The position numbers were made by a program, and so were the translations under genes. From assembly GCA_036172245.1 (NCBI GenBank), contig JAYWIR010000038.1, positions 1,798,001 through 1,862,000 on the forward strand: 64,000 nucleotides of DNA, in the 5' to 3' direction. This document shows, one piece after another, positions 22,900-63,797 of the stretch. The DNA comes from Raillietiella orientalis (taxonomy: Eukaryota). Each line of letters begins with the position of its first letter. Position 1 is the first letter of the stretch. Under the pieces are notes generated by a model, which worked only from the letters and a program-made list of their open reading frames with translations, searched no databases and was not told the origin of the DNA.

Positions 22900-23670
22900 T
22901 GGGAGCCGCAGCATGAAGAACGGGCTTTCGCTCGGACAGCAGCTCGCTTCTCGTTCTGGTGGCGTGAGGAAGAGGGAACTCCACCCCTGCTTGGCTGCGG
23001 AGACCACCCGCCGCTCTCCCACGCGGAGGAGAAGGGAAGAGTGAAGTGCGGGCTGCCAAATTGCCTGGCCTGGAAGCCGTCGACGGTGTCAGGAGCCGGG
23101 ACGCCAAGTAGACGCCCAAAGAAAGAGGAACTTCCCTTGAGGGGAGACCCACCGCGACAGGTCCTCAGGCCCGTGGGAGAACGCGCGACAGTCATTTCCC
23201 TAGCTCGCCTCTCGCGCTCCCGCTCGCAGCTTCCCCGCTCCCACGCACCAACCCACACGTCTTTCTAGCGGGAGAAGCCCCCCTTGTCCGTGAAGGTCGG
23301 GATGTGTATACAGAGAGCCGGGAGACGACCTCTGTCGGGTGGCTCAGCCAAGACGGTGCGAGCCGACTCCGCCGAGGGCCACGGTGGACGTCCACGCTCG
23401 CTCGTCGCGAGTCCGGCAAAGAACGGACCGTCTCCAGGGTTTATGTAGACATGACGGGCGCACCTTCCAGCCCATGCTGAAAAGTCCGGAGGGACCGGTC
23501 GCCTTGTCTTATCTCCTGCTGGAAGGGCCCTTTTCTGCCCGGAGCTCCGCTCCACGAATCTGCCCTTCCACGGCGGATGGAAGCTGCCTCGCCTCTCGCA
23601 AACGCGCCCCGGGTCACCTCCCAGCAGTTTCGCCTCTATTCCCGGAGACTTCCCGAAGACCGGGAGCTGT
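22900..23670 (+). mobile_element. Probable decayed LINE ORF1 with degenerate zinc knuckles
   Basis: SYLLLEGPFSARSSAPRICP and CLASRKRAPGHLPAVSP resemble two decayed CX2CX4HX4C knuckles of Tx1-type ORF1. The match is weak. Confidence 0.35.
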
Positions 23671-26410
23671 GGTCACGAAGGCTTCACGCTGACGAGATCA
23701 GATGGCTGGTTCGACCTGCTCGTTAACGGAGGCGGAGTGGTCACCTTGTCCTTCGGCCGAGTGCCGTTCAAAAACCAGCGCCGGGCCGTGTTCGTTCCGT
23801 GGAGCGAGGTGAGGCGGGGCGGAGCGCGCGCGGGAAAGCGGGGTGGAGCGCGCAGGGGAAGGGGAACGCCAACCGAACCTGCAAACCCCGCGGAATTGCA
23901 GGTGGTCGTCATCGATCCCGTCGTCATCGGCATGACCGGGTCGGACGAAGCTCTGGAAGAAGCCGCCGATCACTGTCCGGATCACGATTACGATCTCATG
24001 AAACCCGTCGTCTTGTCGACTCTGAAACACATCTTCCAGAGGGGAGACGCCAGCAAGAGCGGCATCCTCATGGAGTCCCAGGTGGTCCAAGAGAGCTTGG
24101 AGATTCCCGGAACCGAGATACGCATCGTGTACCACAGCTCGAGGGCGGAAGGTTACAAGTCCACGATCCGCCTGCAGCTCACGCCTCCCGCGATCCCGGA
24201 GTCTCTTCGCCAGGTGCACCTGTCCGTCTCCATAGAGGGGGTGCTCTTCGAGAAGATCCTCGAAGCGGACCCCAACCTCAAGTTCACGTACGCCTGGGAC
24301 CGCTACAACGTGTACAGGTCAGGGACGGGGAGGGACGCGAGAAAGAAAGGGTCGGCTGGAATGCCCTCTGCAGCCAGCGCGTGTACGGCGTCACGACGGC
24401 GACCGTGAAGGTGGGCTACCAGTACGACGGGTGCGGCGCCATCATGTGGGACGTGCAGACGACCAAGGTTAGCGCCCAGGACATGAGCATCTCGGAGATC
24501 GGAGGCTGGAACCTGGATATCCACCACCGGTTCAACTTCCACGAAGGTGAGGCGCTCGGGAGAGTGAGGAGGTGTAGGTGGGCGGAAAGGGGCGTCGCGT
24601 GGTCCGTCGTCTTTCCCCACGTCCTTTCCCCCCTCAGGGATCGTGCACAGAGGCGACGGCGGAAACATCTACCTGAAGCAGAAGCCGCGAATCGTGCTGA
24701 CGGCCATGGGCGACGGCCACCAGAGATCTCTGGAGTGCCTGGAGAAGGTGGCGTCCGGCAACCGGTCGTCCGGCCCGTGCGAGGGCGCGTCCGCGGGCCA
24801 GCAGCAGCTGTTGGCGGCGCACGGGGTGGCGGCGGCGCCGGACGGCAGCGTGTACGTGGCCGACTTCAACCTGATCCGGAGGATCCGCGTGGATGGGTCG
24901 GTGAGGACGGTGGTAAAGTTCAGGTGAGTGCAAACGCCATGTGCCCCTTCCCCGTCCCCTGCACTGGCGCGGTGTCCCAGGGACCACAAGACGTCGCACC
25001 ACTACTACGTGGCGGTGAGCCCGATCGACGGGTCGGTGTTCGTGTCGATGCCCGAGGCGCCCGGCATCTTCCGCGTGCGCAACCCCACGGACCCGGCCGA
25101 CGCGGAGGACAACCTGGAGGCGGCGGTGGGCGGCAGCGGGCAGCGGTGCCTGCCCGGGGACGCGGGCGCGTGCGGGGACGGCGGCCCGGCAAGGGATGCC
25201 AAGCTGAGCTACCCGAAGGGGATGGCGGTGTCCTCGTCGAATAGCCTGTACTTCGCGGACGCCACCAACATCCGCGTGGTGGACCGTGACGGGATCGTGG
25301 TGACGGTGGTGGGGAACCACCTACAGCGCGGCCCATGGACGCCGATGCCCTGCGCGACGCTGTTCGACAGCAGCGAGGTGAGTCGTCGGAGGGTGCATCC
25401 GCCGTCCGGGCACCGCCCGCTGTTCCCAGTTCGAGCTGCGGTGGCCCACCGACCTGGCCGTGAACCCCCTGGAAGACGCGCTGTACTTCCTGGACACGGC
25501 GCACGTGTTCAAGCTGGTGGCGGGCCGGAAGAAGGTCAAGCTGGTGGCGGGCCATCCCATCCACTGTCCGCTGTCGCCGTCCGCGGACCCGCAGGTCGCC
25601 ATCCACGCGCCGCTGCTTTCCCCCCAGGCGCTGGCTTTCTCTCCGAGCGGCGACCTGTACGTCGCCGAGAGCGACCGGGAACGGTCGAATCGGGTGCGCG
25701 CCATCGGCAGCGACGGCAAGATCAGGGACTTCGCCGGCGGCGAGAACCGCTGCAACTGCCAGAAGGATCCCGGCTGCGTGTGCTTCCAGGAGAATCACTT
25801 TCGTGCACCGGACGCTCGGTTCAGCGCCATCACGTCGCTGACGGTGACCCCCGACGGCACGCTTTACGTGTGCGACCAGGGCAACAACCGCGTGTTCGCC
25901 GTGGCGTCGGGGCTCTCCCTGCTGCACCTGCCGGCCGAGTACGAGGTCCCCGACCCGACCGCCAAGCAGGTGTACGTATTCAACCGCTTCGGACAGCACG
26001 TGACCACGAGGGACATCACCTCGGGGAAGCCCCTGTACCGCTTCACGTACACCGTGAACACGAGTTCGGGGCAACTGAGTTCGGTGACCGACGCGTCGGG
26101 CAACAAGGTGTCCATCCTTCGGGACTACGCGAACCAGGTGACCTCGATCGAGAACTTCCGCAACCAGAAGCTGCTGGTGGTCATGTCGCGCACCAAGCGG
26201 ATGCTGCAGGAGCTGGTGACCCCGGAGAGGCACCGCGTGCACTTCGACTACTACGGGACCTCGGGACTGCTGGAATCGAGGAAGGACAGCTCGGGGACGG
26301 TGTACAAATATGTGTACGACGGCAACGGACGGCTGACGTCCTTCGTCACGCCCACTGGTCAGTCCATCGCCCTGTCGTGGGACCTCAGCGCCAAGGGGTC
26401 GTACGTGACG
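23671..26410 (+). CDS. Ten-m: Teneurin (Ten-m-like) internal fragment, 6 exons: 23671-23808, 23902-24317, 24374-24546, 24638-24923, 24981-25377, 25430-~26410 (~797 codons; FN-plug, NHL repeats, start of YD shell)
   Basis: EGFTLTRSDGWFDLLVNGGG, CPDHDYDLMKPVV, YHSSRAEGYKSTIRLQLTP, EADPNLKFTYAW, QRVYGVTTA, SEIGGWNLDIHHRFN, LRWPTDLAVNPL, YVFNRFGQHVTT, YTVNTSSGQLSSVTDASGNK. All five introns are GT..CAG with consistent phases and the spliced frame has no stops. No start, TM/EGF exons or C-terminal exons were found in the window. Confidence 0.95.
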
Positions 26411-26849
26411 AGCGGCTCCAGATGGCCGTGCGGTCGGTGCAGATTCTTCCCAATCTCCGGGCCCCGGCGGGGAGGGACGGGAAGAAGGTGCTCGCGACCG
26501 AACCGCTTCCACCTGAACGGGCGTGGACCCGCAGGCCCTCCGGCTCCCGCGGGTACCTCCAACGAGACTCGCGCGGTCGATGCGCTGTCGGGGATGCCAC
26601 CCGTCCCGGATGCAGGGAGTTAACGCGTGCTGTTTCTGGGGCGTCCGGGAAGAGGACTAGGGAGAACACCCCTCTCGAAGCCGTTGTTTCCGCCAGCATC
26701 CGCAAGGGAAGAGGAGAGGGGGAACGCGTGCACTAGAGGGCAAGACCGAGAGGCAAGAAGAGGTCGAGGGCCTTGGGAACGCGAGGGCTCGCAGGGGTGG
26801 CGGCGGGGATTCCTGAGCGGTTCCCTCCCCCTCTCTTCAGAGAGAGGGG

Positions 26850-46300: not shown

Positions 46301-47956
46301 AATGAACTTTTTAGTTGGTAATCAAAAGGACTCAAAGTATCTCTTTTAGACTTTAGACATAGATGGATTCTTTGGAAGTTCAGAAATCCTACTTCGCTTT
46401 CAGAATTGGCAGGTTGGGGAAAAGTTAAGGGTTAATAAGATAAATTGCAACGAAGTGTGTGTGTTTTTAACAACTTCATGTGGGACATTATCCGGCAACA
46501 TGTGATAAGGGAAGGATAACAAAATAACGGAGAATCCTCCTACATTTATTACAAAAATAAGAGTAAAAACACAATCCATGTTTGTCGATTAGTCTGAGCG
46601 CATATCGTAGCATAGGTATACACTTGAGTGCTTTTGGTGTATAGCTGCACCTATATAATTGCAGGCAGGCATGCATGTGTACAAATAGACATGCACCTCC
46701 TTTTGTTTTTTTATACACATTAAACTAAATGATTTCCACACAAAGTCTGCATGATCTTTCTGCAGTAAACGTTGTTGAGAAAATTTGGAGTTGGCCAGGC
46801 TTATAGAAGACCACATGAAAGGAAGAAGAAAAAAAAAAAAACACTACTTTTTTTCAAAATTGATTCACTCTTTATCTAGTCACTGACTTCTTTTCTGTAA
46901 TCACAACCGCATCAGTGTAGAGCAGTCAGCTGCAAAGTTCTGTCTTTTTATTGACGACCTGACCACTGTCATTCTCTTACAAGAGTGAGGTGCCCAGGCT
47001 GCTTGCCTACGCTCTTGACATAAAAGCATCCTCTGCTTGCTAATGTGGTACCTCAGGTGGCTAATACTGTATTTTGGTCCAAATAAATCCAAATCATGGT
47101 TTCTCTTGTACTTCAGACCTAATGAGTACTTTGTGGATACATACACATTTGAAAGTGCTGTCCCGTAGCTTTAGGTGTAGACTTTGCCTTTTGGATACCT
47201 TTTTGCTGAAATCATGAGGGAATCCATGCAATTCCGTATGATGCTTTATATACGCAAACAAGAAAAGCAGGAAAGACTGGCAGCTGAGGGCTGCAATAAC
47301 GATTGTACGGGACCTTTTGATCGGATTCATGAATGCCGACATCTTTTAACTGATTGCCGCATAGAGTTTCCCCAGCATGTCACCCCGCAATGTTTCTCTT
47401 CTAGGAGAAAGTGAAAGAAAAAAGTTCCAAATTTAGTTGTATGTACATTTGAGGGGATGATTACACTTCTCCGGAACTGTAATGCCAGAATACTGTGTCA
47501 TGCTTTCTTCAGTAGCCAGAATGACCTATTTTTTTTTGTGCATTAAAGGATTTTTTCTTCGTTCTTAAACATTTAAGGGGTATTGAGGAGCAGCTCAAGT
47601 TTATTTGTGATCCAATGCAAAATAATTTATGAGACCGCCCTACCTGTAAATTCCCTTGAAACCACCCTCCGGTTCGCCATTTTAGGGATTCGTAAATTTT
47701 TTAATTCTGTACCAACTACTGGTGTTCTACCCACTTTTCTTCTTTTTTCTTTTTGTTACAAGGTTTTATATTGATCAGATCCTCCTTCGTATCATCGTAA
47801 CAATTTTTCTCTAAAGGCAGTTACTGTAATAAACAGCATCATGTTTAACACACAAAGCCTTATTCTTAAAATGCGAGCAGTATTCTGGTAAAGACTAAGA
47901 TTCGATTCCCCTAAGATTCGAAATGCCCTTTTCATTCATCCTGCACCAGGGCACAC

Positions 47957-47962
47957 TTTATT
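47957..47962 (-). terminator. AATAAA polyadenylation signal overlapping the SCFD2 TAA stop
   Basis: Minus strand reads cgcTAATAAAgtg. Confidence 0.45.
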
Positions 47963-49925
47963 AGCGACTTCTGCAACTACTTAACAAGTTGGTAAATTCC
48001 TTGGGCAGCAACCACCTAAGAAGATCATGAGGGCGCAAAAGTCGTGTACTGCCCAAGATGATATCGTGTTGCTTGCTCATCCGCCGTATCTCTTGGATTT
48101 CAGAAACCGTTATGCCTCCAATTACGTACACCAAAATAACGGGGCAGTCATCAGGTCTAGGTCTTCTCCCTTTAACCAGTGAACTACTATTTGGTTAGCA
48201 GCATGACAAAGATAAGACGAACAAACCTGATCCGATTTCTAAGGCTTGGAAATTCTTCATGGCAACATAAATCAATTAATTCGGGTCGTTTTGGATCAAA
48301 AATGTCCTTGAACAAGCAGTGAAGGAGGCTTTGATATGACCGAGACTTTGTACTATCGATTAACACTCTGTCAATCAATAATTAGCGAAACAAGTTTTTC
48401 AGGTAACATACCGATACTGGCGAAGAGTTTGATGTAAAGAACAGCTCTGTCGCAATCTCGTAACACTGTCTAAAAGCAGTTCTTGACTTTCTAAAATTAA
48501 GACTCGGTTAACAACCATAGACCAATATACTCTCTACCTGCACTTGATAATGGAAGCATTTCTTCAATCTGATTCAACAAATTCTGTTCAACAAATGAAG
48601 GCATTTGTTTCCTGCCAGAAACTTCTAGGGCATAGGCATGAAGCAACAGTAATAGAAGGCTATCAAGGCCTAAATGGTGAATCTCATCCTGGTATGGGCG
48701 AATCTCTCCCTGCAAGAGTGCCCTTTCCATGTGCATTAATTTAGACCAACGGGATGAAACTGTTGCTTTCTGACTATGTTGTACTGCTAAAGCTGCTTGA
48801 ACTAACCCAAAATTTTTCCTAACAGATGTTCTGTCCAGCTTTCTCACAGCAACCTCAAGAGTTTCACAGTCACTTAAATCAGGTTGCAAATCTATCAATT
48901 TCCTTAACAGTTCATCCACAGTTGGTTTTGGAGATCCCATTATGAGGGAATTTATTAGCTCACAACGGGCAAGGCAACCTCGAGGGTACTGTGGGTGTCC
49001 TATGGGTAGGAGAGACAGCTTAAGTGGGGACAGATCCACATGAACATCCACAGTATGTCCCAAAAGAGGTGGCAGAGTGGCCAGTACTGGGTCCAATAAA
49101 TTATTCCATGAATGACCAGAAGGACCAATGAGATCTAATGTCCGATCCAAAAGGATGAGAGAAAGGCGTCCTTGAGCACGTTTTCTTCTTTTAACTGCAG
49201 AAGGCAAAGCTGCTAGAGCACATGCAACTTGGTTGCTCATTGGTCCAATGCTAAACAAGAGCTCTTGAGTATCTAACTGGTGCAGTAAAGCATTCAAGAG
49301 GCATGCTGTCTCTTCGATCCCTTCTTTTTCCAGCTGATAGAAACTGATCATTATGAATTCCATAAGTTCATACACACCAGTGGGGTGGTAAAAAATTCAT
49401 CTAGACTAGGAGTTACAAATAAGAATGGAGTGAGGCACACTAAACTCAAAGGGAAGTGCAATATCTTCACAATGCATCCCTACAGATTACAGTATTTCCA
49501 TGACTGTCATAATAGCTACTTACTTGGTTGCCTGTCCATTGCAGAAGGTCATCTACTACATTTTCCAATTGTACTCTATGATCATCAGCTGTAACAACAG
49601 TAAGTTTTTTCAGTAGAAGAGATCCCTGGATCAACTTCTGAATAGTGCCAATTAGTTGTTCCTTCAAAGGTTTGCAACTCAGTATGACAAGAGCAGTGCA
49701 TCCAACACAGGGAATCTAAACAACATAATATAGTGAACAAAGACAAAATACCTCCAAAGCAGATAGTTTATAGACTGCAATGGCTTTTGCCTGTAACAGG
49801 CCTTCCAGTCCACATGTCCAATGGAGTCCCTCTATGGTGGGTTCATCTATATACACCGTTGCACCCTGACAATGTTCGAGCACTTTCCCCCATAGCTGAC
49901 GCCCCACTGAAGTCATGCTGATCAT
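47961..49925 (-). CDS. SCFD2: Sec1 family domain-containing protein 2, 7 exons: 49925-49752, 49715-49524, 49479-49378, 49333-48538, 48490-48412, 48367-48227, 48186-47961 (569 aa)
   Basis: N-terminal WGKVLEHCQGATVYID...EGLHWTCG, ALVILSC, LLQWTGN, SLILLDRTLDL, and C-terminal RPRPDDCPVILVYVIGGITVSEI...GSTRLLRP match SCFD2 as remembered. Six GT-AG introns give a continuous frame. Confidence 0.92.
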
Positions 49926-50704
49926 GGTGCCAGTGATAAATTACGACTGGCTAGTATTTGATTTCCTTTCTTCAGTGAAACTAGTATATTGTTGCTCTGG
50001 CACAGAGTTAATTGATAGTCAAAACTGTTTGGCCACTCAGTTCCAAGATGATGCCAAGCACCTGTCTCCTGTTCATCTTGATCAGTGAGTTGCTGGCACA
50101 CTACAAACACTGTAACATTAAAGTTCTGAGCACAGTAACGCAGTTGCTGACTCAACAATGAGAAGAAATTATCTGAGCTAATACGGGTCTTGACTTCCCA
50201 AAAGATACTTGTCACACTGTCAATAGCTATCACACCAATATCAGGATCAGCATGCAGAAACTGCTCTAACTGGTCCACAACAGTTTCTAATGTGTTGCCA
50301 TCATAGCAATAGATAATCTGAAATCTGCTTAAAGCTTGTGCAACAGCTGCATCCAGTACGTTAGCAGAAAACTGTGCTTTCTGCTTTAGTTGATACTCTA
50401 CGAGATTGTGTAATCTGCAGATATCAAAGTGCTTGTCACAGTCCAAAAAAAGAGCTTTGGTATTGAGTCCTCCAATATGAATACCTTCATAATGATCAGG
50501 AAGAATAAACTGGGCTAGGAACTGAGTCAAGAGAATAGTTTTTCCTGAGCCAGATTCACCAACAATTGCAAAAAGAGAATCAGTACGAATGCTTTCTGAA
50601 AAAAGTACCCCATCAAGTTGCATCATTGCAGATCTCTGTTTCAGCCTAGCTAAAAGATGCAGACCACTTTCTGTAATGATACTACCTGATTCGTCATTCT
50701 TCAT
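49922..50704 (-). CDS. XRCC2: RAD51 paralog XRCC2, intronless CDS (260 aa)
   Basis: N-terminal ESGLHLLARL (XRCC2 ESGxxLLARL), Walker A GESGSGKT, ILP..GG....LFLDCDKHFD, Walker B VIAIDS, C-terminal HLGTEW. The ATG at 50704 is preferred over the ORF-track start at 50779. Confidence 0.92.
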   Translation of the reverse strand: MKNDESGSIITESGLHLLARLKQRSAMMQLDGVLFSESIRTDSLFAIVGESGSGKTILLTQFLAQFILPDHYEGIHIGGLNTKALFLDCDKHFDICRLHNLVEYQLKQKAQFSANVLDAAVAQALSRFQIIYCYDGNTLETVVDQLEQFLHADPDIGVIAIDSVTSIFWEVKTRISSDNFFSLLSQQLRYCAQNFNVTVFVVCQQLTDQDEQETGAWHHLGTEWPNSFDYQLTLCQSNNILVSLKKGNQILASRNLSLAP

Positions 50705-50722
50705 CTTCTTTGGGGCTACGTA

Positions 50723-50765
50723 CTTGGAAAACAAATATATATACAAAACTTCAAAATACATGTAC
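50723..50765 (-). other. Candidate 43-nt intron in the XRCC2 5' UTR
   Basis: gtacatg...tttgttttccaag; same size class as the SCFD2 introns and ends 18 nt before the ATG. Confidence 0.45.
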
Positions 50766-51647
50766 CAAAGCAAATACAATAATAAATTCGGTCCTTAGAA
50801 ATATTTCACATCATTGCCACACAACATTCATTGGGATATAAGAATTCTGGAACCTAAATATTACAAGCATACTGCTCGCACAAGTGACGATCAAAATGAA
50901 ACCCTAATCTTGATTTATGTATATAATGCTTGTGCAAAACATATTTATATGTACAAATACAGACAAGTGTATGTATTTTCTGTCACTATTCAAAGGGCCG
51001 CATTGGAATCATTCCGTACAGACAGTGAGGTGTTGCATAGTCCTCAGAAAGTGCGAAGTATAACATGACCTATTTGTCCCTCAATATGTGTTACCAAAAT
51101 TCAATGCCTGAAATTCAGAGATGAGAAATGTATTGAAAAAAACGTGATAGGAAACATGAATCTAAGTATAGACTATATATTTTTAAATAGTTGCATAAAT
51201 TTTCACGAATAGTTGTTACCTGGAAATTGCTTTATGTGCTCTGGTACTATGGTCAAAATGTCTTGCCACTCTCACTTACCTGGAAATGTGAATTGTTCAA
51301 ACATGCTTGATGAAGATGGATGAATATTTTTTTCTTTACGAAAACGGATATGATAATAATTTTATCCCTACTCTAAACATGCATGTATGAAGAGTCTGCA
51401 GTTAAAACCCAAAGCATTAGCAACAGAAATCAAAACTCTTTGAAAAAATTTTATCATATGATGGGCATCTCTTCCGAGACGACTTGCTAAAGCGCCATGG
51501 ATGCAAGAACGGAGAGAAAAAAAACAATGATAAAAATGAGAAACGGTTTGAAATAATGGAAAGTATGAGCATTCAAAATTTTTCAAATCACAACTTAAGG
51601 CTGCATACCGGATCATTTCGATGAGTACGGATCGGTAAGATCGTTGA

Positions 51648-61360: not shown

Positions 61361-63797
61361 ATGAATTCAATGCAGTATTTTGACTGCCACTTGTCCTGGG
61401 ACAATTATCATGAGTTTCTGATTGCTGAATTATGTGAATGCCATGGTGAACAAAAATATGCAGACCTGTTCATCAGATGTGAAAATAAAAGCATTGGTTG
61501 CCACAAGTCAGTGATGGCAGCCTCCAGTGATTTGCTGAAAGGCTTGCTGAAAAATGAAAATTCAGATGTGCTTATCTTATCAGGATACAAATTTTCCACA
61601 ATAAAGTGAGTAGTTTTTGTTTTGCATTGCAAGGGAGTGCGTTGGTCCGCCATGTATGAATTTTTGCCATGGGTGGCAGTGAAGTGTTGCCCATTTGGTC
61701 AATTGATGATGAATAGTCATGAATGGAAGGAGGTGTTGATTTCGTTGCTTGCAAGAGGAAGTGTTTTTGCTCATTGAATTGCTGTGCAGATCGCATTTTG
61801 CTGTTTGTTTGATTCGCGGCATGCACACGTTTGCGTCTGCATGCCACTTTTGCCATGATGGATTTTTTTCCCTGCCATGTGCGGCCCGTGCAGTGTTGTG
61901 TTGCCTATTTTTGTTGGCTGGAAGGTGGAACGGGGATTGTTGGAAGTCGTGGTCCAGTGTTTTCGGTACTGCAGAAGAAGGGAGTGAGTGTGCCAAATGG
62001 AGCTGAGGCAGTGGAAGGGAGTGGCATCAAATGGTGCAGCTGAGGGTGATTGTGTTTTCGTTTTTCTTGGTTTTTCTGTTTGACGGGCGTGTCCGTGAAG
62101 GTAAGTAGAGGAAGTGTAGAAGGAGACGTGTTGTGTGAGCGTTGCTCGAATCGTTCAGTTGAAAGTGTGTGTATGTGTGCGCGAGCGTTGTGTGTTTTGT
62201 TTGTGGTTTTCGTGATTTTTGGACCGCGCACTCCCATTATGTGAGGTGAGTGCAGCTTTTGATCGTGTGCGCGTGTGTTTCAGGTGCCTGGTGAAGTTTA
62301 TTTATCTTGGAGAATTGAGCCTACCACTGCACAGCTACCAGGACTTTATTGAGACTGCTCGCGACCTGCAGATCAAGGGAATCGTCGACAATCCGCTGAT
62401 CTCGGATTTTGACCCGAGGCTGGGTCAGCATGTTAGGCATGTTTACTCATCTGAGGGAGTCAGCCTGCAGAAGGGTGTTGGAGTGGGAGCGAGTACAGGC
62501 TACGAATCGGAAAGCTGTGAAAAGCTGGACGATTACTGGGAGTGCAGGGACAGCGATGACCTGCAGTGGGAGTCTGGAGTGTGCGGCTCAGATGTACAGG
62601 ACGATTCATCGTTGGACAGCATTGGGAACGTGGTGTGCAGCCTGCTGGAGGAGCTGGTGATGCAAACGGAAGTGAACATTGCTGCAAATAGTTGTGAACC
62701 TTTGTCTCCCAGCACCATGGACAGCGAAGGTGAGTTGGAGGTGGTTTGGACACCAGGGTGGAGAGTGGTGCATGAGTGGTTGTGAGTTTTTTCTTGTGAG
62801 CATGCGGTTATGGTTTTGATGTGTGGATTTGCATATTTGGAATTGTGATTCCATGGTTGTGTTTGTGTGCACCAGAGCCGCTGAGGGGATCTCGAGGAAC
62901 GCGGGATCACCCTGTGAGGACATGTTCCCGCTGTCATCGTGCATTTCACAGCCGAATGCTGTATCAGTTGCATTCGTGCAAAGGGACCCACTCCCGTGCT
63001 GGGAAGAAGGCAAGCAGCCGTGGGAGGATGCGTCCTTCATTTGGTGTGTGCGACGGGCAGGTGGAGCGTCATCCTCTGGTGAAAGTGCGGCGGCTAGATG
63101 ATAGCCAGCTGTGCAATTTGGAGGAGCGGACGACCTCTCCTGGATCAGAGGAAACGTTGGATAGAGATGAAGAGAGCAGCTTCTGCTGCTTGGAGTGCAG
63201 CGAGCAGTTCTGCTCGTTGGGTGCGCTGCAGCAGCACATGAGCATTCATGCAAGGGTTCACCGCTGCAGCATTTGCGGCTGGAGCTTTGAATCGGAAGAA
63301 GGAAGACTGTTGCACGAGAATGAGCACAATGCGTCGCCGTTGCTGTGCGAATTGTGCGGGAAGGGGATGAGAGCACGGGAAGCATACATGCTGCACTACC
63401 GCCTGCATTCTGTGGACAGGTGAGTGTTGGGTTTGCAGACGTTTTGGGTGCATTTCAGTGGTTGTTCAGGGAAGAGAGCGCGTTTTCTCTTCCGTCGCTG
63501 CTTGCCCGAAACAGCAGTTTCGGTGGTGTTGGCAGCAGCAATTCTTCTCAGGTGGGCAAGTCTCACAGGTTGCTGATGTCTGCACGTGCGAGGCTGAAGC
63601 ACAAGAGGCGAGGGAGGCCGCCGAACGGTGCGCATCGCGTGTCGGTGGTGGAGGTGAAGAGCACGCCCGTGAAGAGAATGTCTCTGGACAAGAACCAAGT
63701 GCGTCGACTGAACGAGACGATGGAGGAAGTTCTGGAGGACATGTGCAGTTGGTTTGCTGAAGATGGTTTGGTTACCAGCGATGAGGAGTACTTGTGA
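61361..63797 (+). CDS. BTB/POZ (ttk-type) C2H2 zinc-finger protein, exons 61361-61605, 62284-62729, 62876-63419, 63470-63797 (520 aa)
   Basis: BTB: HLSWDNYH...YADLFIRCENKSIGCHKSVMAASS...K|CLVKFIYLGELSL...FIETARDLQIKG. Fingers: CLEC..HMSIH, CSIC..HENEH, CELC..HYRLH plus one atypical finger. GT-AG introns have consistent phases; the last exon is less certain. Confidence 0.88.

Follow-up and report, generated by a model that had tools for sequence, protein, structure and literature searches.

How can two conserved genes both be expressed from one strand of an arthropod-like genome when the stop codon of the first shares bases with the start codon of the second? The question is raised by a locus in a 64,000-nt stretch of contig JAYWIR010000038.1 (Raillietiella orientalis, assembly GCA_036172245.1, positions 1,798,001 to 1,862,000), hereafter the window, in which a gene for the recombination-repair protein XRCC2 is followed on the minus strand by a gene for the Sec1-family protein SCFD2. 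The limits of the two-gene unit are the XRCC2 ATG (50704) and the final base of the SCFD2 stop codon (47961), and the two coding regions overlap in the four letters ATGA. This overlap is beyond chance, and it is nearly forced that an mRNA with the full XRCC2 coding region carries at least the beginning of SCFD2, and likely much or all of it. By analogy with known systems, we tentatively read the locus as dicistronic, with coupled reinitiation at the AUGA and possibly an internal SCFD2 transcript beside it, a reading whose chance we put only slightly short of even. The original prediction had proposed either a bicistronic mRNA or an SCFD2 transcription start inside XRCC2; both remain the leading readings, and the evidence separates neither from the other.

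The junction can be read directly. On the minus strand its text is ...ctggcaccATGAtcagcATGact, which gives GCA CCA TGA in the XRCC2 frame and ATG ATC AGC ATG in the SCFD2 frame, SCFD2 being in the -1 frame relative to XRCC2 according to the frame translations. The list of open reading frames (ORFs) holds both, as 49922..50761/50704 and 49716..49925. What the original prediction had said of the overlapping stop and start and of a second ATG at 49916 was borne out at every coordinate checked, and it was also right that the overlap leaves no room between the coding regions for a 3' untranslated region (UTR), a poly(A) site or a promoter. Furthermore, the SCFD2 frame is closed by a TAA 15 nt upstream of its ATG, and the list of AG dinucleotides holds none between this TAA (49943-49941) and the ATG. 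Therefore, no hidden upstream coding exon joins SCFD2.

The identity of the upstream gene was established by a phmmer search against the Protein Data Bank (PDB), in which its ORF matches human XRCC2 chains with E 4.3e-19 (query 11-196, chain 8-181), whereas XRCC3 (1.5e-7) and RAD51C (1e-4) score far more weakly in the same search. Its Walker A motif GESGSGKT aligns with the GPEGTGKT of human XRCC2, its Pfam matches are to the P-loop families Rad51 (E 4.1e-5) and AAA_25 (E 8.6e-8), and its nearest clusters in the Atlas, where names are automatic, are named XRCC2 (281 and 250 aa, mostly Arthropoda). A word-indexed protein search returned no match for XRCC2, nor did searches of metagenome contigs and prokaryote-genome contigs. 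An in-frame ATG at 50761 would lengthen the protein by 19 residues; alignment with the human N-terminus favours a start at 50704 rather than at 50761. Upstream of this start, a TATATATAT run lies at 50735-50743 (minus strand), 32-39 nt 5' of the ATG at 50704 and inside the possible 19-codon extension; if this run served as a TATA box, XRCC2 would be left with a 5' UTR of just about 10 nt. Six upstream ATGs occur between 50880 and 50704.

The downstream gene was modelled as seven exons totalling 569 codons, separated by GT-AG introns of 36, 44, 44, 47, 44 and 40 nt (Table 1). Its last exon matches Pfam Sec1 with E 1.8e-9, at profile positions 523-574 of 575. With exon 4 as query, 129 matches at E<=0.001, mostly of 600-690 aa, were obtained among 1.84 billion representatives; the best of them, of 622 aa, shows 37% identity, none closer than this being found, and belongs to Atlas clusters whose automatic name is 'Sec1 family domain-containing protein 2', mostly Arthropoda. 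A word-indexed search with the same exon against longer proteins gave no match. The gene is identified by its Sec1 domain and by nearest relatives that are SCFD2 and not other SM proteins.

Both proteins had been said to look complete. For SCFD2 this stands: in a MAFFT alignment with 19 homologues, the conserved block starts at residue 12 and the N-termini of the homologues lie 0-11 residues earlier, and because of this alignment and of the in-frame TAA 15 nt upstream, the ATG at 49925 (or that at 49916) is judged to be the true start and the N-terminus complete. For XRCC2 the statement is less secure and is based on length (260 aa, compared with 250-283 aa in the nearest Atlas clusters) and on our own reading of the end strands of the RecA fold, by which the protein appears whole. 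In the PDB search, no similarity to solved XRCC2 chains could be detected for its last 64 residues, its last 72 residues gave spurious repeat-protein matches only, and a single-sequence AlphaFold model has a predicted local distance difference test score (pLDDT) of 34.5, unusable for judging the C-terminal strands.

Table 1. Features of the XRCC2-SCFD2 unit in window coordinates
Feature	Position	Strand	Description
XRCC2 coding region	49922..50704	minus	Single exon, 260 codons + TGA; Walker A GESGSGKT
TAA in SCFD2 frame	49941..49943	minus	Five codons (15 nt) upstream of the SCFD2 ATG; frame 2 reads '...SQS*FITGTMISMTS'
ATGA overlap	49922..49925	minus	SCFD2 ATG 49925-49923, XRCC2 TGA 49924-49922; read directly
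Second in-frame SCFD2 ATG	49914..49916	minus	M-I-S-M; begins 6 nt past the XRCC2 stop
SCFD2 exon 1	49752..49925	minus	174 nt; conserved N-terminal block W..V....V.ID....E.LHW.GG
SCFD2 exon 2	49524..49715	minus	192 nt; preceded by 36-nt GT-AG intron 49751-49716
SCFD2 exon 3	49378..49479	minus	102 nt; preceded by 44-nt GT-AG intron 49523-49480
SCFD2 exon 4	48538..49333	minus	796 nt; preceded by 44-nt intron 49377-49334; RRK...LIDRTLDL core; internal AATAAA 48956-48951
SCFD2 exon 5	48412..48490	minus	79 nt; preceded by 47-nt intron 48537-48491
SCFD2 exon 6	48227..48367	minus	141 nt; preceded by 44-nt intron 48411-48368
SCFD2 exon 7	47961..48186	minus	226 nt including stop TAA 47963-47961; preceded by 40-nt intron 48226-48187; Sec1-family C-terminus
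AATAAA on SCFD2 stop codon	47957..47962	minus	Probable poly(A) signal common to both genes; motif scan

The structure of the two genes bears on how the unit may have arisen. As XRCC2 has no intron and SCFD2 has six, a retrocopy origin of XRCC2 is plausible, which would make the locus a candidate case of an intronless gene copy riding on the transcription unit of a host gene. A more radical version would treat the XRCC2 ORF as a recent retrocopy inserted in the SCFD2 5' UTR and acting as a long upstream ORF only, with the functional XRCC2 elsewhere. The missing introns, compared with six within 1.7 kb in SCFD2, are in its favour; nevertheless, the frame has stayed open over 260 codons with an intact Walker A motif, no poly(A) remnant lies between the genes, and the GC content at third codon positions (GC3) of XRCC2, 0.33, resembles that of SCFD2, 0.37, so that we grant this version hardly any probability.

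Overlapping genes could also result from crowding. Pfam recognises only 1 of the 116 ORFs of 50-109 aa between 43.9 and 59.3 kb, namely the last exon of SCFD2. From 32.9 kb to the end of the window, the matches among the longer ORFs (2 of 73) are XRCC2 itself and, at 62.8-63.4 kb, an ORF with C2H2 zinc fingers, and from 1 to 32.9 kb, 4 of the 150 ORFs of at least 110 aa match at E<=1e-4, all of them pieces of one teneurin gene. The XRCC2-SCFD2 pair is isolated within about 15 kb, with several kb of unrecognised sequence on either side. Since the pair stands in such a gene-poor stretch, genome crowding does not account for the overlap.

The next question is where an XRCC2 transcript could end. 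A motif scan found AATAAA 3' of the XRCC2 stop at two positions only, 48956 in exon 4 of SCFD2 (a signal that the original prediction had already pointed out at 48956-48951 and that is indeed present) and 47962 on the SCFD2 stop codon. A TATAAA at 49772 and an AATATA at 49990 inside XRCC2 are weaker variants; this AATATA is the nearest variant to the junction, the last 60 nt of XRCC2 being devoid of any poly(A) signal. Because no poly(A) signal can precede the SCFD2 start and the next AATAAA lies about 1 kb further on, an mRNA with the whole XRCC2 coding region almost certainly has to continue into SCFD2.

A spliced-leader (SL) operon would separate the two genes in another way, a leader being trans-spliced at an AG near the first SCFD2 ATG and XRCC2 being polyadenylated next to it; for example, use of the AG at 49919-49918 would make the second SCFD2 ATG the first AUG of the message. 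Several AGs do occur around the junction, trans-splicing has been reported in copepods, which are arthropods (PMC4664967), and in Ciona, operons without an intercistronic region are the rule, the median distance being 1 bp (PMC7986045). Operons of Ciona intestinalis and Oikopleura dioica resemble the present locus in that same-strand genes follow each other at about zero distance under a common promoter, but there the zero distance runs from the poly(A) site to the trans-splice acceptor that it abuts, each gene keeping its UTRs, and not between coding regions, which here overlap (PMC7986045). In addition, the AGs near the junction are preceded by weak pyrimidine tracts (0.25-0.60), and the last 60 nt of XRCC2 offer no poly(A) signal. 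A scan of the window with Rfam gave no match at the gathering score and therefore no SL RNA family, although a leader gene could be located elsewhere. Most arthropods are not known to perform trans-splicing, and on balance this organisation appears quite improbable.

Cis-splicing could also produce two monocistronic mRNAs if a non-coding 5' exon, lying upstream of XRCC2 and transcribed from a shared promoter, were joined alternatively to the exon of XRCC2 or to an acceptor within the end of XRCC2, immediately ahead of the SCFD2 ATG. FlyBase flags 130 genes with a common promoter and 5' non-coding exons (PMC4528330), and AGs are available at 49952-49951 and 49948-49947; their pyrimidine tracts are nevertheless poor (0.25 and 0.35), and we consider such a shared promoter very improbable.

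The layout itself has precedents in animals. Among the FlyBase 'rule-benders' are 159 dicistronic gene pairs of Drosophila, and in the fly loci that are exclusively polycistronic, the distance from stop to start ranges from -34 to 319 nt (PMC4528330), a range that includes the -4 nt found here. In File S1 of the same survey, 'OVERLAP' appears in 28 of 350 gene rows, that is, 14 pairs with overlapping coding regions, and 'OVERLAP 4 nt' marks CG33649/DNApol-gamma35 and Tgs1/moi, two pairs that each carry the flags 'unrelated' and 'all di/polycistronic' (PMC4528330). With conserved cellular genes of an arthropod thus known to be arranged in this way, the original argument that an overlap of this kind is rare for two conserved animal genes was too strong. 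The likeness extends to unrelated conserved genes on one strand, to a stop/start overlap of exactly 4 nt and to the setting, an arthropod-like genome that as a whole is not compact; several pairs in the Drosophila list also include DNA-repair genes (Rad1, mus312, mei-217/218, Pif1) (PMC4528330). By contrast, the dicistronic mRNAs of Drosophila are backed by cDNA, RNA-seq and start-site data, while the present unit is known from DNA; the gene pair differs, and the mechanism of translation is unsettled there as well. A search of 12 supplementary files gave no occurrence of the names Xrcc2, Rad51D, Sec1 or Scfd2 (PMC4528330). Judged by titles and abstracts, the XRCC2-SCFD2 pair was not found in print; a review on NonO/SFPQ names XRCC2 and SCFD2 and a review on plant microRNAs contains XRCC2 and 'dicistronic', and neither concerns the pair.

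The identical four-letter overlap is found in bacterial ATGA coupling, which relies on 70S ribosomes and Shine-Dalgarno sequences. Unlike bacterial coupled genes, XRCC2 and SCFD2 have animal homologues, and SCFD2 has spliceosomal introns. Overlaps of the AUGA and UAAUG types are furthermore the classic viral layout for termination-reinitiation after long ORFs, and caliciviruses, influenza B segment 7 and the retrotransposon SART1 share with the present locus a long ORF followed by an out-of-frame start that has bases in common with its stop (PMC10275272). The XRCC2 stop and the SCFD2 start, since they overlap, also lie within the distance of about 20 nt required by termination-reinitiation of the TURBS (termination upstream ribosome-binding site) type. 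The viral cases differ in that they depend on a structured element further upstream, which base-pairs with the 18S rRNA; neither the complementary motif of such an element nor significant structure was found here.

Under coupled reinitiation, transcription would begin 5' of XRCC2 and reach the AATAAA at 47962-47957, and the six short introns would be spliced out. XRCC2 would be translated by ordinary scanning, and some of the ribosomes ending at its UGA would not leave the message but start anew, at the AUG that overlaps the stop or at the one 6 nt further, and so yield SCFD2; a monocistronic SCFD2 transcript starting inside XRCC2 may coexist with the longer one. If one mRNA does yield both proteins, the locus would offer a clean natural setting in which to study how the ribosomes of animals resume translation after a long frame; a 2023 review lists the distance rules of cellular reinitiation and the existence of TURBS-like elements in cells as an open question (PMC10275272). 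For annotation, gene finders tend to miss or truncate one of two such genes. What is known of the function of XRCC2 or SCFD2 is unchanged, and the layout has its documented precedent in Drosophila.

Other ways of reaching the second frame fare less well. Leaky scanning is disfavoured by the 13 ATGs that XRCC2 holds. A programmed -1 frameshift, or a one-base assembly error, would turn the two genes into one XRCC2-SCFD2 frame, and SCFD2 does lie in the -1 frame of XRCC2; the original prediction had allowed for a frameshift fusion. The TAA at 49943-49941 nonetheless confines any shift to 15 nt, in which the longest run is TTT, no heptamer of the X XXY YYZ type occurs in the last 60 nt of XRCC2, and none of the 129 SCFD2-like representatives contains an XRCC2-like part (phmmer, E<=10). 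A frameshift is therefore disfavoured, and that part of the prediction is weakened. Moreover, the genes would adjoin even with an indel, and a single fused frame, whether artefactual or programmed, seems extremely improbable.

Several points weigh against coupled reinitiation from a two-gene mRNA. The locus is known here from genomic sequence alone, from which we infer the two-gene mRNA, and the analogy with Drosophila is indirect. Reinitiation after a long ORF is inefficient without a helper, and its efficiency in caliciviruses is 3-20% (PMC10275272). As to such a helper, the viral core TGGGA, a motif not derived from the host 18S rRNA, is not present in the last 270 nt of XRCC2 (50199-49925), its sole occurrence being at 50200, and the 200 nt around the junction fold with a z of -1.15, as good a fold or better being reached by 24 of 200 shuffles. 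The arrangement has also not been seen among distant relatives, that is, among the 129 representatives and 21 metagenome loci retrieved by a search with a six-sequence SCFD2 alignment. These loci are distant (23-37% identity over long alignments), and several of them resemble transcripts that begin 45-118 nt before the SCFD2 start; of all 21, only a few (L004, L006-L008) have 0.6-4 kb of upstream flank. None of the 21 carries XRCC2 at E<=1 in tblastn, and at E<=10 two matches of chance level (E 6.3 and 8.7) appear. As far as these sequences reach, the pairing is not a general feature, and the metagenome loci do not bear on the host lineage. Lastly, only 45 of the 159 fly dicistronic loci are without a monocistronic alternative for both genes (PMC4528330), so that internal start sites of the kind considered for SCFD2 are common in such loci.

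The other leading reading, two overlapping monocistronic units, builds on such internal starts. The SCFD2 promoter would lie within the XRCC2 coding region, in its 3' part, and SCFD2 protein would come from the short transcript only, while the XRCC2 mRNA would use SCFD2 as its 3' UTR and end at the AATAAA of exon 4 or at the shared end. This needs no unusual translation and agrees with the fly data, in which at least one gene has a monocistronic form as well at 114 of the 159 dicistronic loci and the monocistronic form of the 3' gene usually arises from an alternative downstream promoter (PMC4528330). At the present locus, an initiator-like (Inr-like) CCAGTC lies 21 nt 5' of the SCFD2 ATG, and the AATAAA at 48956 could terminate XRCC2 mRNAs. 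However, a promoter placed in coding sequence must be compatible with the constraints on the protein; a check by eye, which is a weak one, revealed no match resembling a TATA box or a downstream promoter element (DPE) at the expected spacing; and both Drosophila pairs with a 4-nt overlap have dicistronic transcripts only, as flagged in File S1 of the FlyBase survey (PMC4528330). We hold an internal promoter as sole source of SCFD2 to be somewhat unlikely, though a serious contender.

At the other extreme, the two-gene mRNA might be the sole source of SCFD2, through reinitiation that is efficient after 260 codons even without a virus-like rRNA-pairing element. We regard this strict form of coupled reinitiation as distinctly unlikely. 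If true, it would imply a cellular termination-reinitiation mechanism of its own kind, the dose of a membrane-traffic protein would be tied to that of a recombination-repair protein, and a 20-nt inverted repeat that flanks the unit could mark it as a cassette moved or regulated in one piece.

The arms of this inverted repeat lie at 47872-47891 and 50861-50880, about 70 nt 3' of the SCFD2 stop, past the AATAAA, and about 157 nt 5' of the XRCC2 ATG, respectively. They are complementary at 18 of 20 positions, the first 12 perfectly, and the score is reached by 3 of 500 shuffles of the flanks (361 x 396 nt). The repeat could be due to chance, mark the termini of an old mobile cassette or act as a pairing element. 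A transposon cassette was considered and rejected: inspection of the flanks by eye revealed no target-site duplication, and the window contains no further copy of the repeat.

Among the neighbours of the unit, the teneurin gene (23455-26733, plus strand, probably longer) encodes TTR-like, FN-plug, NHL and YD-shell domains. One of its pieces matches Drosophila Ten-m with E 1.3e-107, compared with 7.2e-63 for the best vertebrate chain; its GC3 is 0.88, and its introns, which start with GTGAGT, are 52 and 57 nt long. The teneurin, the Atlas neighbours of XRCC2 and of the best SCFD2 match, and the very short introns lead us to conclude that the genome probably has an arthropod-like, or at least ecdysozoan, affinity.

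In 62216-63420 (plus strand), the zinc-finger ORF matches Pfam zf-C2H2_4 with E 1.2e-6, and the ORF ahead of it looked BTB-like by eye, its BTB match falling short of the Pfam threshold of E 0.001. The only tandem repeat in the window is a CA run at 1626-1671. Base composition breaks sharply, from about 57-67% GC at 6-40 kb to 30-44% at 44-58 kb, an isochore-like change within 64 kb that GC3 also displays (0.88 in the first block, 0.33-0.37 in the second). Between 59900 and 61400, long purine/pyrimidine-rich tracts of low complexity translate, in several frames, into stretches of K, E or F, and from 60 kb onward the GC skew takes strongly positive values.

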